A DNA stretch of 41,681 nucleotides, taken from IMG/VR virus record IMGVR_UViG_2606217106_000020. One strand, 5' to 3'. Positions 21,001-27,000 of the stretch are shown here, one piece after another. Within the stretch, counting starts at the first letter, position 1, and the number at the start of each line of letters is the position of its first letter. The stretch is from a virus. Taxonomy: Duplodnaviria > Heunggongvirae > Uroviricota > Caudoviricetes. A program made the position numbers.

Positions 21001-24000
21001 TTTCAGCCAGTGCGAGAAAAATACTGGCAAACAAGAGAAGAAGCCCAACGGGCTTTCCGCAAAAGAAACAGACAGCCTTGTATGGCTGTGGGATTATGCC
21101 AACCGCTCACAGGCATTGTTCCGTGAGTTGTATCCCGCATTAAAACTGATTCAGTCTGGCTATTCCGGCATATGCCACGACTACGGCTATGAGTTCTCGT
21201 ATATCATCGGGAGGGCGAGGGGCGTTTTAATTAATCACACGCGGGATATAGATATTTATGAGCCTGACGGGCCGACGAACCTTCTGGCATGGGAAAGGCT
21301 TAAGAACAAAGAGTTGCCGCCTTCACTGCATCGCTACTGACAATTGACAACTTAACAAACCCAGCTTCGGCTGGGTTTTTTATTGCTGAATTTTCAATAT
21401 GAGAGGACATGACAATGAATGAGCTGATAAATAGCAGCATCATCAAAATGACCAGCATTGAAATCGCTGAGTTGGTGGGGAGTCGTCCAGATAACGTAAA
21501 AATATCAATAGAGCGCCTGGCTGAATCTGGAGTTATTCAACTTCCTGCATTGCAGGTTTTCGAAAAAATCAATAACTTAGGACTGCGCCGTAGTGTCGAG
21601 GCTTACGTCTTCGAAGGCGAACAAGGTAAGCGAGACAGCATTATTGTCGTCGCCCAATTGTCGCCGGAATTCACCGCTCGTCTTGTTGACCGTTGGCGAG
21701 AGCTTGAAGGGGCAACCGCGAAAATACCACAAACCTTTTCTGAGGCATTGCGCCTTGCGGCCGACCTTGAAGACCAGAAGGCTGAACTGGAGAAACAGCT
21801 TGCTCTCGCAGCACCTAAAGTTGAGTTTGCCGATCGAGTTGGCGAGGCCAGCGGAATTTTGATTGGAAACTTTGCAAAGGTTGTTGGTATTGGTCCAAAC
21901 AAACTGTTTGCGTGGATGCGCGATCACAAAATCCTTATTGCTTCAGGTTCCCGGCGCAATGTGCCAATGCAGGAATATATGGATCGCGGCTATTTCACAG
22001 TGAAAGAAACAGCGGTCAATACAAATCACGGAATACAGATCTCGTTCACCACAAAAATCACCGGGCGTGGTCAACAGTGGCTGACCAGAAAGCCGCTCGA
22101 TAACGGAATGCTGAAAGTAACAGGGGAGGCTGCTTAATGGCTAACCTACGCAAAGAAGCGCGCGGCAGAGAATGCCAGGTACGGATTTACGGCGTATGCA
22201 ATGGCAATCCTGAAACGACAGTTCTGGCACATTACCGGATGGCTGGAATTTGCGGAACGGGAATGAAGCCTGACGACCTGATCGGTGCATGGGCTTGTAG
22301 TGACTGCCACGCGGAGATCGACCGACGCACCCGAATTCTCGACAACAACGACGCCAGACTTTACCACCTGGAAGGCGTGATCAGGACGCAGGCGATATTG
22401 CTGAAGGAGGGGAAGATTAAGTCATGAATGAATATGAGTTTGTGCTTCCCTGGCCGCCGACGGTGAATACCTACTGGCGAAGACGGGGAAGCCAGTACTA
22501 CATCAGCGATAAAGGCCAGAAATACCGAAAAGACGTACAGCAAATCATCCGGCAACTCAGATTAGACATTTTCACTAAATCACGACTTCGCATCACAATT
22601 ATTGCTGAACCACCAGATTCCCGCCGTCGCGACCTCGATAACATCCTGAAAGGTTTACTCGACTCTCTTATCCACGCCGGATTTGCGGACGACGACGAGC
22701 AATTCGATGACATTCGCGTAATTCGCGGCGTGAAAGTGCCTGGCGGTAGAGTGGGGATAAAAATCACCGAACTGGAGAACATTTGATGAATGCTAAAATT
22801 CAAACGATACCTGAATTACTGATCTGCACCAGGGGAAATCAGACAGAAGTCGCCAGAATACTGAACTGCAATCGTGCTACAGTCAGAAAATACATTGATG
22901 ATAAAGATGCGAAAAAGCACGCCGTCGTCAATGGCGTCCTTATGGTTCATCGCGGATGGGGTAAAGATACTGATGCGTGATATCCGGCAGGTTCTTGAGC
23001 GCTGGGGGGCATGGGCGGTAAATAACTATGAGGATGTTACATGGTCGCCCATTGCTGCCGGATTTAAGGGACTGATCCCCGAAAAAGTAAAATCACGTCC
23101 ACAGTGCTGTGACGATGATGCGATGGTGATATGCGGGTGCATAGCCCGCCTTTACCGGAACAATCGCGATCTGCATGACTTGCTGGTTGATTACTACGTG
23201 TTGGGGGAGACGTTCATGGCGCTGGCACGGAAACATGGGTGCTCTGACACCTGTATAGGTAAACGCCTTCACAAAGCGGAGGGGATTGTTGAAGGCATGC
23301 TGATGATGCTGGGAGTGAGGCTTGAGATGGATCGGTATGTTGAGCGTGAATTGCCGGGAGGGAGAAGCTCTGTATTTTATCAGCGAAAAAATAGTTTACG
23401 ATCGTAAAAATCTGCATATCATGATAAGAGTGGTTACATTGCCACGCAGCCGAACCCGCCGATGCGCGGGTTTTTTTGTACCCAGAATCCTGTGAGCTAT
23501 ACGGAAAGTACACAGAAAGGAAGGTACGACCGCAATTAATAACAAAATCTTAAAAATCTCATATGGCACTATTAGTTTTCTAAATATTGTATATTTTAAG
23601 TATTGCAGGATAACCCTGTAACGAAGTTTGCGTAACAGCATTTTGCTCTACGAGTTTGCCAGCCTCCCCTGGTGGCTGGCTTTTTTTGTATCCGTTCAAC
23701 GGGAATGTTACATACCTCACAATTAAGTCAGTTGAATGTTGTCTGCCCGGATGAGAATTTGTTAGAAAAAACTGCATGGTGAATCCCCCTGAGCGGAGGG
23801 GCGACTGGTGACGGTATAATCTCTGATTATCAAAACGAGAATGACGCGGGTTTAGTGGCACCGGGCTGAACTCACCGGGAGGCACCCGGCACCATGCAAT
23901 GGCACATAGCGCCACTCTCCAGCCCCTCTCCGGAGGGGCTTTCTTATGGACAAAAAAGCCCGCGCTGGGAGACGCGGGCGGCAAGGAATGAACAATGAAA

Positions 24001-27000
24001 CGTGAAGTAATATTTCAGCTGGCGAATAATACCCCATAGTAATCACTCTGCGCAACTGCGCGACCTTTTTCGAATTGCGGGCTGTAGTCTCCCTTCTGCC
24101 ATTGTCCTGTAACTTCCGGACTTCAGCCCGCTCCTTATTTTACTCACAATATTATCCCGGCCGGGAGGATTCATGGCATTTAAACACTATGATGTTGTCA
24201 GGGCGGCGTCGCCGTCAGACCTTGCGAAACGAATAACTCAAAAACTGAAGGAAGGGTGGCAGCCTTATGGTAGTGCGCTGATTTCGACAGCTGGTTATGG
24301 TGCGGAGTTCATCCAGCCAGTTGTGAGTGAGGGGAGCATCTCATCACCAGAGGAGCCAGGCAACCGTCCGACGACCTCAGCGCCTTCTGTTGCGCCAGAA
24401 TATTACTATGTGATCGCGCTTGCTGGTCAGTCCAATGGTATGTCATACGGTGAGGGACTGCCATTACCGGATACATTCGACAGCCCTGATCCACGTATTA
24501 AACAGTTAGCGCGTCGCAGTACGGTGACACCGGGCGGTGCAGCATGCAAATATAACGACATCATTCCGGCGGACCATTGTCTGCATGATGTGCAGGACAT
24601 GAGCCGTCTTAACCATCCGAAAGCGGACCTGTCAAAGGGGCAGTACGGAACCGTGGGGCAGGGGCTGCATATCGCCAAAAAACTGCTGCCGTTTATACCG
24701 GCGAATGCGGGCATTCTGCTGGTTCCGTGCTGTCGTGGTGGTTCAGCGTTCACCACCGGAGCTGATGGCACATACAGTGACGCGAGTGGCGCCTCGGAGA
24801 ATTCAACCCGCTGGGGTGTGGACAAGCCGCTGTATAAGGACCTTATCGGTCGAACAAAAGCGGCACTGGAGAAGAACCCGAAAAATGTGCTGTTTGCCGT
24901 GGTGTGGATGCAGGGGGAATTTGATTTTGGCGGTACGCCGGCAAATCATGCCGCACAGTTTGGTGCGCTGGTTGATAAATTCCGTGCAGACCTGGCGGAT
25001 ATGGCAGGCCAGTGCGTCGGTGGCTCTGCTGGCGGTGTTCCCTGGATATGCGGGGACACGACGTATTTCTGGAAGCAGAAGAACGAATCCACGTACCAGA
25101 CGGTGTACGGCAGCTATAAAAATAAAACGGAAAAGAATATCCATTTCGTACCGTTCATGACCGATGAGAACGGGGTGAATGTGCCGACGAACAAACCGGA
25201 AGAAGACCCGGACATTCCGGGTATCGGTTATTACGGTTCGAAATGGCGTGACAGCTCAGCCACCTGGACGTCACAGGACAGGGCGAGCCATTTCAGTTCA
25301 TGGGCTCGCCGTGGGATTATTTCCGACCGTCTGGCAACGGCGATTCTGAGCTGCGCGGGTAAGTCTTCTGCGTTTGTTAATGGTACTGCCGGGGTGGTTG
25401 TTCCAGACAGACCGGTTACCACCTCAGAGTCTGTAATTTTTTACGATGCCAAAAAAGCTACAGACAATCAGCTGAAACCCTATGGCTGGGACGGTGTGTA
25501 TGGCAGGCGCACACTGGTTGATGACAGCGGCAATAAAGCTCTGCGAATTGAGAAAAATAACAGCGCGAAATCCTGGTCAATGTACTGTGATATTGCTGCA
25601 GACAAGGCAAAACTTTTACTGGAAAAAGGCGGAGAAATTGCTGTCCGGTTTAAAATCCCCGAAAACGTCAATCTTGAGACAACCAGAAACAAGTATGCCT
25701 TTGGTTTGTACTGGCGAATAGCGGAATGGCCGGGTGAGGGTGGTGAAGGCCATCTGAGTTCTTTCTTTGTCCAGACAGATAAAGCCAGTATTAATGTTGC
25801 ATACCATCATACAGTTAATCAACAAAAAGAACTTGGCACGTTTGGCGCATTCGACCATGACTGGCATACGCTTGCATTTAAATTTAAGGGCAGTAACAGC
25901 ATTAATGTTACTCCGGTGCTTGATGGTGTGGATGGACAGGCGTTTGACCTGGTGAAATGGGCCAATACTGCTAATGGACTCAACAGGTTTGTCATTACGG
26001 ATATTACAGGTAGTGCAGAAACCTACCCTGTACTTATTGATACGGTGGAAGTTAAAGCAAACAAAGCTGGAGCAGCCGCATAATTGCTAAAAAAAGCCGC
26101 CAGCGGCAGGAATGGAAGCTGGCGGAGGTAATCCCAATGGAGAATGTAAAGAAAAGATGCTTTCGTACATTGGTTTTTAAATGAAAACAATTCTCATTGT
26201 CAACCATAACGGTAAGAAATTATGACATTTATTCATCAGGTGATGCTGTACTTCTGTACGGCGGTCTGTGTGCTGTATCTTCTTTCGGGTGGGTACAGGG
26301 CTGTGCGCGATTTCTGGTGCAGGCAGATTGATAAAAGGGCCGCTGAGAAAATCAGCGCCAGTCAGTCAGCCGGAAGCAAGCCCGAAGAACCCGTTACTCC
26401 TTAACAACCCCTTTCAGCGAGAAAATCCCATGTCAGAAATCACATCCCTGGTCACTGCTGAGGCAGTGAAGGAAGTCCTGCGCTCTGAAGAAGTCCGGAG
26501 CGCACTGAAACAGAAACTCCGCCAGAACCTTGAGTCGCGTCTTGATGCAGAAGTGGATGCCATTCTGGATGAGCTGCTGGGCGTACCAGCGGTTCCTGAG
26601 CCGGAAGGTATCGCGGGTGACGGGAGTGCTTCAGATGGCGGTGAACCTACACCTGACAGCGACATGATGATGTAAGCATGCGCAAGGGACCATCGGTGTG
26701 TGCCGGTGGTCTTTATATTGTTGTGAGCTTCCGGATTGCGGGAGACGGGGTATGTACCAGATGGAAAAAATCACAACAGGTGTGTCATACACCACGTCAG
26801 CGGTGGGAACGGGCTACTGGTTCCTGCAGTTGCTGGACAGGGTTTCCCCGTCTCAGTGGGCGGCAATAGGCGTGCTGGGGAGTCTGCTGTTTGGGCTGCT
26901 GACGTACCTGACTAACCTGTATTTCAAAATCAAAGAGGACCGGCGTAAGGCGGCGCGGGGAGAGTAAGCTGATGAGCAGGAAATTCCGCTATGGTTTATC

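Follow-up and report, generated by a model that had tools for sequence, protein, structure and literature searches.

The 765-bp interval between the antiterminator gene Q and the esterase gene downstream of it in the Caudoviricetes record IMGVR_UViG_2606217106_000020 (41,681 nucleotides in all, here called the window) is very likely the late-operon control region of a 933W-like lambdoid prophage that lacks stx, in which two conserved modules are joined at the site where Shiga toxin (Stx) phages carry their cargo. Its components have all been described before, namely the PR' promoter with tR' and the small RNA (sRNA) StxS, the STnc100 RNA that follows stx, the convergent sRNAs of the moron site, and the NanS-p-type esterases, and current understanding is unchanged by the interval. 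The practical value lies in annotation. PGAP and RefSeq annotate nothing between Q and the esterase in strain cM8a or in O104:H4, and the 765 bp left blank by RefSeq hold a late promoter, terminators, and two or three sRNA genes.

Q ends with its stop codon at 23407 and the ATG of the esterase lies at 24173, so the gap runs from 23408 to 24172, as an earlier note on this DNA had placed it. That note called the gap non-coding. The description holds for proteins: the longest plus-strand open reading frames (ORFs) that touch the interval are 57, 53, 36, 34, 32, 32 and 30 amino acids (aa) long, and none reaches 60. It does not hold for RNA, as at least two, and probably three, sRNA genes lie inside. 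The note had seen no tRNA-like T-arm motifs. ARAGORN likewise returned no tRNA or tmRNA gene across the whole window, and Rfam, used with both gathering and E-value thresholds, found no tRNA there versus three in each cargo-bearing relative.

The cargo site can be placed almost to the base. Window positions 22900-23686 align at 95.3-98.1% identity to five phages (phi296, Nil3, a Stx2a phage of the EC3283 type, the Stx1 phage AP005153, and Sakai Sp5), and all five alignments stop at the same base, 23686, which matches the 3' end that was mapped for the transcript stopping at tR'. Homology restarts at 23704-23717, a point that in the toxin phages lies 41-46 bp past the stxB stop codon. At the junction itself a few further bases are homologous, CCGT on the left and AATGTTA on the right, leaving about 8 junction-specific bases. 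The alignment to Stx phages that the earlier note had proposed thus sets the cargo boundaries at 23686 and 23704-23717 or, with the flanking bases considered, at 23686-23696 on the left and 23703-23717 on the right.

Nothing of the cargo itself was found. When the interval was compared with three cargo segments by blastn at word size 7, no remnant of stx, tRNA or methylase sequence appeared, only chance 11-mers. Searches of the whole window with Stx cargo (blastn) and with the Stx1 and Stx2 subunits (tblastn) gave nothing significant, and by the same methods stxA and stxB, whose presence between Q and the lysis genes marks a Stx-converting phage, are absent from that position. The ileZ-argN-argO cluster that follows tR' in phages of the 933W/Sp5 type is likewise absent by ARAGORN and Rfam. 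Because both flanks align to the Q-stx region of Stx phages across a clean gap, and because no tRNA, stx or methylase remnant is present, the earlier description of this prophage as an stx-free relative of 933W-type phages is supported. Two contrary outcomes, an interval unrelated to the Stx phages and a tRNA or toxin remnant, were looked for, and neither appeared.

The tRNA-only 933W-like phages (vB_EcoP_phi296, TL-2011a and the PPwrbA prophages) resemble the window in Q, PR', tR', the STnc100 module and nanS-p (96-98%), and they also lack stx. They differ in carrying a 473-bp insert of their own, comprising a methylase fragment, tRNA-Ile/Met(CAT), tRNA-Arg(TCG) and tRNA-Arg(TCT), which is missing from the window.

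The family placement rests on sequence well beyond the interval. About 30 complete Escherichia coli genomes, O104:H4 outbreak strains among them, carry the 765 bp at 100% identity, and positions 12000-32000 of the window are 100% identical to strain cM8a. The nin region of O104:H4 2011C-3493 departs from the window upstream of about 22137. Further downstream, identity to the O104:H4 Stx2a phage P13374 is 92% across the late region (29826-39289), and the prophage is therefore 933W-like.

The Q protein matches Pfam PF06530 with an E value of 2e-50, is named 'antiterminator Q family protein' by PGAP, and shares 142/144 residues with Sakai Sp5 Q and 136/144 with P13374 Q. Compared with the Q21 structures (6jnx, 6p18) it is a distant homologue, detectable at E 1.3e-7 over residues 8-86; the likeness consists of Pfam family context and detectable homology, and the homology is low and partial. 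Q21 is loaded at a sigma-dependent pause close to the promoter; at the RNA exit channel it makes a ring that keeps terminator hairpins from forming. We infer that the window Q works by a mechanism of this type.

The left module can be read against transcript maps from Sakai. There, the PR' start and the tR' 3' end were mapped by differential RNA sequencing (dRNA-seq) and Term-seq and lie 258 nt apart (PMC7547250, Sy et al. 2020), at 1,266,203 and 1,266,460 of NC_002695.1 for Sp5. RNase E cuts the Sakai PR' transcript at GU/AUU (+173), and the resulting sRNA, StxS, binds Hfq and acts as an activator of rpoS and a repressor of stx1B; the short form, StxS_S, measures 74 nt on Northern blots, and StxS is known from some non-toxigenic phages (PMC7547250). 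The published coordinates refer to NC_002695.1, and their offset to the.2 record was derived as 142 for Sp5. Two checks agree with this offset: the published AsxR coordinates land on the Rfam AsxR match, and the extracted StxS1 and StxS2 sequences are 244/258 (94.6%) identical, versus a published 94%. Transferred to the window, the Sakai positions put +1 at A23429, the 3' end at 23686 and the RNase E cut between 23601 and 23602.

A consensus scan, independent of that mapping, found a single plus-strand promoter-like site in the region, and this site places +1 at 23429. Since the TTTACG-16-TATCAT element found by the scan and the Sakai mapping agree, PR' overlaps the Q stop codon and the AT-rich stretch further downstream lies inside the transcript. 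The 45 nt up to +5 of PR' are identical to Sp5, and from -44 to +19, a stretch covering PR' and the Q-utilisation site (qut), P13374 has exactly the sequence of the window. Presumably qut extends from about -35 to +20. In a relative with a 222-aa Q, no homology to the window is seen before 23453, which indicates that the Q-specific part, promoter and qut together, ends near +20 (boundary about +14 to +24).

Terminator-like hairpins are abundant here. The consensus scan of 22900-24700 found seven, versus 1.7 +/- 1.2 in shuffled sequence; about five lie inside the interval and one, at 22919-22937, upstream of it. The three hairpin/T-run sites named in the earlier note were all recovered (23452-23473, 23656-23675 and 23921-23940), with stem energies of -12.7, -16.8 and -17.3 kcal/mol and z-scores of -2.5 to -4.1. 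They are present as claimed but not equivalent, being a promoter-proximal hairpin, tR', and the terminator belonging to STnc100. Beyond these three, there is a strong terminator on the minus strand (23979 to 23958) and a weak plus-strand hairpin (24049-24062). Rfam matches below the gathering threshold (Qrr, VqmR, anti-hemB, OmrA-B and others) were discarded as chance, terminator-driven hits.

Between PR' and tR', the homologue of the long StxS form (StxS_L) aligns over 258/258 columns without indels, at 250/258 to StxS2 of Sp5 and 244/258 to StxS1 of Sp15. The motif GUAUU occupies 23600-23604, so that the cut falls at the published +173. In the segment corresponding to StxS_S, both differences from Sp5 sit in the tR' loop, and the predicted fold has an energy of -32.2 kcal/mol (z -3.75). 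The Sp5 Term-seq 3' end corresponds to window position 23686, and the phage Nil3 record annotates tR' here. Taken as a system, the Q-PR'-StxS-tR' regions of Sp5 and Sp15 (PMC7547250) share with the window the 144-aa Q, the promoter and early transcribed region, the 258-nt spacing and the +173 motif; the window differs in having no tRNA and stx genes after tR', and in two tR'-loop substitutions. As stx1B, the cis-linked StxS target in Sakai, is absent from the window, any action would be limited to trans targets such as rpoS. By analogy with the Sakai alleles, for which this was shown, the RNA may be made from the window copy, bind Hfq and activate rpoS.

The stretch at about 23560-23620 had been described in the earlier note as promoter-like. 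It is genuinely AT-rich, with 24.7% G+C over 23540-23620 versus 49% in the whole window, but the promoter lies instead at 23395-23422, and the AT-rich part falls within the transcript, around the RNase E site. That the stretch is nonetheless a real promoter, either late or internal with the short StxS made directly, we consider improbable. A -10-like TATATT at 23590-23595, 7 nt before 23602, would suit such a promoter, as would the primary transcription start site that TSSpredator called at the StxS_S 5' end in the Sakai dRNA-seq data (PMC7547250). The consensus scan, however, found no plus-strand sigma-70 consensus in 23540-23620, and the -35 region is poor. In Sakai, the StxS_S 5' end was detected by RNA-ligase-mediated RACE without tobacco acid pyrophosphatase, and the 258-nt precursor accumulated in rne-3071 at the non-permissive temperature, both of which point to processing (PMC7547250). 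In addition, the mapped PR' lies 173 nt upstream, and the mosaic break tied to the type of Q falls at about +20 of that upstream promoter, away from the AT-rich stretch.

The right module, to the far side of the junction, begins with an STnc100-family gene. Its match to the Rfam model scores 165.1 bits versus a gathering threshold of 47, covers model positions 1-206/206, and ends in the third hairpin (-17.3 kcal/mol). The same family follows stxB in Sp5 (207.7 bits), in the Stx1 phage (176.7) and in the Stx2a phage (185.7), and follows the tRNAs in phi296. STnc100 has been reported 75 nt downstream of stx2 (PMC12370729), and a moron site with convergent Hfq-bound sRNAs has been described downstream of PR' (PMC4104026, Tree et al. 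2014). In Sp5 the pair is EcOnc27 (about 235/247 nt, plus strand, Hfq-bound) and AsxR; in Sp15, EcOnc42 is about 271 nt on Northern blots and lies on the strand opposite PR' (PMC4104026). The EcOnc27 peak falls on the 3' end of the Sp5 STnc100 match. Judging from the Northern size of about 235/247 nt, the STnc100/EcOnc27 RNA in the window may plausibly start close to the conserved TCACAATT (about 23721), with TGTTACAT ahead of it; if it were made instead from the extended -10 at 23760-23768 (TGTTAGAAA), its length would be about 170 nt.

Convergent with this gene, the window has a minus-strand terminator in the position of the AsxR terminator of Sp5. The element that ends there shares with AsxR only position and terminator architecture, and its sequence is the variant that Stx1 phages also have. 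Its assignment to AsxR or AgvB (RF02703, RF02702) was rejected, as neither model, representing a conserved 3' region of about 42 nt, matched 23900-24180 at E<=10; Sp5 AsxR scores 88.1 bits. A more fitting counterpart is probably EcOnc42: the Hfq-crosslink peak of Sakai Sp15 EcOnc42 maps to about 24035-24117 on the minus strand of the window, in an 87.5%-identical alignment, and the consensus scan placed a minus-strand promoter-like site at 24179 to 24151. Over the right module, the window shares 87.5% identity with the Stx1 phage and 94% with the Stx2a phage of EC3283 type. The likeness to the convergent sRNA pairs found 3' of stx (EcOnc27/AsxR in Sp5, EcOnc42 in Sp15) extends to the order of the parts: the plus-strand STnc100-type RNA comes first, followed by the back-to-back terminators, the minus-strand RNA and the nanS-p leader. 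In Stx phages, however, this module follows stxB, whereas in the window it follows tR' directly. Because the sRNA genes intervene, the late promoter and qut do not lie directly upstream of the esterase, as the earlier note had supposed.

The last part of the interval, the esterase leader, is highly conserved: about 130 bp before the ATG (from about 24045) are near-invariant in six phages including Sp5, and Sp5 departs upstream of about 24045, in its AsxR segment. The gene that follows is named 'SASA family carbohydrate esterase' by PGAP. Two elements lie within the leader, at 24049-24172: a long-range inverted repeat of 8 bp (GCGGGCTG ... CAGCCCGC), and a GC palindrome over the Shine-Dalgarno sequence. 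The esterase gene could be controlled at translation or by antisense RNA; the EcOnc42 peak maps opposite the leader.

Three minus-strand ORFs of 134, 81 and 67 aa also cross this region, and small proteins encoded there would be a different reading of it, which we regard as very improbable. The ORFs exist, and similar ones figure as hypothetical proteins in the annotation of older phages (ORF b69 and b70 of AP005153, phi296 and P13374). None of the three has a Pfam match, however, and none is called by PGAP in cM8a or O104:H4. The largest (23580-23984) spans the cargo junction and its halves lie 0.5-1.8 kb apart in cargo-bearing relatives, so it cannot be a conserved gene, and the ORFs overlap tR', STnc100 and both terminators. 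They were rejected as protein-coding for want of a Pfam match and because the largest crosses the junction.

Returning to a late control region built from two modules, its working can be sketched by analogy. The left module (23395-23686) would supply a constitutive PR' with its qut site, the proximal hairpin and tR'. In the lysogen, RNA polymerase would run from about 23429 to tR' at 23686 and yield a 258-nt RNA, and an RNase E cut at GU/AUU, between 23601 and 23602, would release an Hfq-binding sRNA of the StxS type, which in Sakai activates rpoS translation. Upon induction, Q would load on polymerase paused near the promoter and make it resistant to terminators, allowing it to pass the proximal hairpin, tR', the STnc100 terminator and the 24049 hairpin and to reach the esterase, holin and endolysin genes. 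The right module (23704-24172), set off by the 17-bp cargo-free junction, would provide convergent sRNA genes, STnc100/EcOnc27-type on the plus strand and EcOnc42-type on the minus strand, together with the conserved esterase leader.

The sequences themselves establish homology, the boundaries, the lack of cargo and the families to which Q, STnc100 and the esterase belong. Several points weigh against this account. Everything functional in it is carried over from homologues: where transcription starts and ends, how the RNA is processed, its Hfq binding and its regulatory targets would follow published alleles that are 87-97% identical. The proximal hairpin looks competent (-12.7 kcal/mol, z -2.5; stem conserved and loop variable in the relative with the 222-aa Q), and if it were efficient, little 258-nt RNA would be made; the mapped 258-nt RNA of the 97%-identical Sp5 allele implies read-through. 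The minus-strand RNA matches neither the AsxR nor the AgvB model and its 5' end is uncertain, and z-scores of the full STnc100 (-1.35) and antisense (-1.56) spans are unremarkable. The TSSpredator call at the StxS_S 5' end belongs here as well, and it leaves a small probability for an internal promoter in the AT-rich stretch.

The presence of this prophage in O104:H4 outbreak genomes raises a further, only mildly novel possibility. In these genomes a Stx2a phage is accompanied by a prophage that lacks the toxin but has a Q of the Q933 type and the same qut. Given 136/144 identity between the two Q proteins and the identical PR'/qut sequence from -44 to +19, either Q could antiterminate the late operon of the other, including stx2a. 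We speculate, tentatively, that the toxin-free prophage takes part in toxin control in strains that also carry a Stx2a phage, such as the O104:H4 outbreak lineage. If so, rpoS would also come under StxS from a second gene copy, and the hypothesis bears on both stx2a cross-activation and StxS dosage.

The empty junction is not confined to these strains. A 121-nt probe across it was used to survey 5426 complete E. coli genomes and 50,697 deposited phage records. The contiguous junction occurs in 88/5426 genomes (34 match at >=99% and 55 at 95-99%), while 674 of the same genomes have this tR'. Among the phage records it occurs in 0/50,697, though 283 hold the tR'. The junction allele TGTATCCGTTCAAC[G/A]GGAATGTTACATACC was seen behind three left contexts: the 144-aa Q, the 222-aa Q (O103 RM8385) and an hsdMS cassette (KY174). 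The 88 genomes and three contexts together argue for an established allele, carried by recombination into different backgrounds, rather than a recent loss in one strain. In the last of these, E. coli JNEC-KY174 (NZ_AP045170.1), the block of PR', StxS, tR', empty junction, STnc100 and esterase directly follows type I hsdM/hsdS, with no Q gene, and the late promoter would thus be without an adjacent cognate Q.

How the junction came to be empty can be argued both ways. A tRNA- and/or stx-bearing ancestor may have lost its cargo by precise deletion between the flanks, an origin that we think possible but doubtful. Occupancy is graded among close relatives, from 1790 and 1494 bp through 473 bp (phi296) to 17 bp, so cargo content does change, and the flanks are 95-98% identical to those of toxin-bearing phages. 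On the other hand, the site has no scar or cargo remnant, the junction allele is established (88/5426 genomes, three left contexts), and the immediate flanks are allele-specific relative to cargo-bearing phages (TTTTTTTGTATCCGT versus TTTTTTATGTCCGT). The Stx2 cargo, moreover, opens with a truncated methylase gene and looks like inserted foreign DNA. Alternatively, the empty junction may represent the ancestral state, an acceptor site into which tRNA and stx cargo came later, a suggestion weaker than that of cross-talk with the Stx2a phage.

Table 1. Features of the Q-esterase interval and its flanking genes, with the cargo held at the same site in relatives. Positions are those of the window.
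Feature	Position	Strand	Details
Q antiterminator gene	22973..23407	+	144 aa, Q933 type; PF06530, Sp5/P13374 identity
Late promoter PR'	23395..23422	+	-35 TTTACG 23395-23400, 16-nt spacer, -10 TATCAT 23417-23422
StxS_L homologue (predicted PR' transcript ended at tR')	23429..23686	+	258 nt
Promoter-proximal terminator-like hairpin	23452..23480	+	stem 23452-23473, T-run; +24 to +52
AT-rich segment inside StxS_L	23540..23620	+	24.7% G+C; contains RNase E motif GU/AUU
StxS_S homologue (predicted processed Hfq-binding sRNA)	23602..23686	+	83/85 identical to Sp5
tR' intrinsic terminator	23658..23687	+	stem 23658-23680, U-run; -16.8 kcal/mol, z -4.1
Empty cargo (moron) junction	23687..23703		17 bp versus 473-1790 bp in relatives
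STnc100-family sRNA gene, EcOnc27 counterpart	23746..23951	+	Rfam RF02076; own terminator 23921-23940
Minus-strand intrinsic terminator, convergent with STnc100 terminator	23952..23979	-	-16.9 kcal/mol, z -3.4
Probable antisense/convergent sRNA of EcOnc42 type	23980..24144	-	ends at minus-strand terminator; 5' end uncertain
Esterase leader, highly conserved	23990..24172	+	weak hairpin/T-run 24049-24062 (-7 kcal/mol); Shine-Dalgarno GGAGG
NanS-p-type esterase gene, first late gene	24173..26083	+	636 aa; Pfam DUF1737 + SASA (PF03629) + DUF6645
Cargo, Sp5			1790 bp; truncated methylase gene, ileZ-argN-argO, stx2AB
Cargo, Stx1 phage			1494 bp; stx1AB
Cargo, phi296			473 bp; methylase fragment and three tRNAs, without stx
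Cargo, window			17 bp; none

Several features elsewhere in the prophage are worth recording. Downstream of the esterase, a short plus-strand gap (26084-26221) separates it from the DUF1378 gene; for related prophages, a 2026 preprint puts PasA/PasC sRNA genes in this position, after the gene for the sialic acid esterase. Upstream, two tandem plus-strand cassettes (18821-19019 and 20406-20604) contain c4-a1b1 targets, isrK and C4 antisense RNA, all above the Rfam gathering thresholds. Antirepressor genes lie just downstream of them, a P22AR-domain protein at 19073-19738 after the first, and Ant (20657-21340) with KilAC (21409-22137) after the second, an arrangement that suggests antisense control of antirepressors, of the P1/Gifsy type and in duplicate, within the nin region. 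A toxin-antitoxin cluster at about 17500-18800 of the nin region comprises a Doc-family toxin, a helix-turn-helix protein and a RelE/ParE toxin, as named by PGAP in the identical sequence of cM8a. In O104:H4 2011C-3493, NinB/NinE come straight after this cluster and the second Ant/KilAC cassette is missing, so the nin regions of two otherwise near-identical prophages differ. In the early region, a sok antitoxin RNA (16783-16957, plus strand, 110 bits) adjoins the annotated hokD toxin gene. Between the lysis and terminase genes, at 28380-28994 on the minus strand, lies a gene annotated as a lipopolysaccharide core heptose(II)-phosphate phosphatase, which looks like another cargo (moron) gene.

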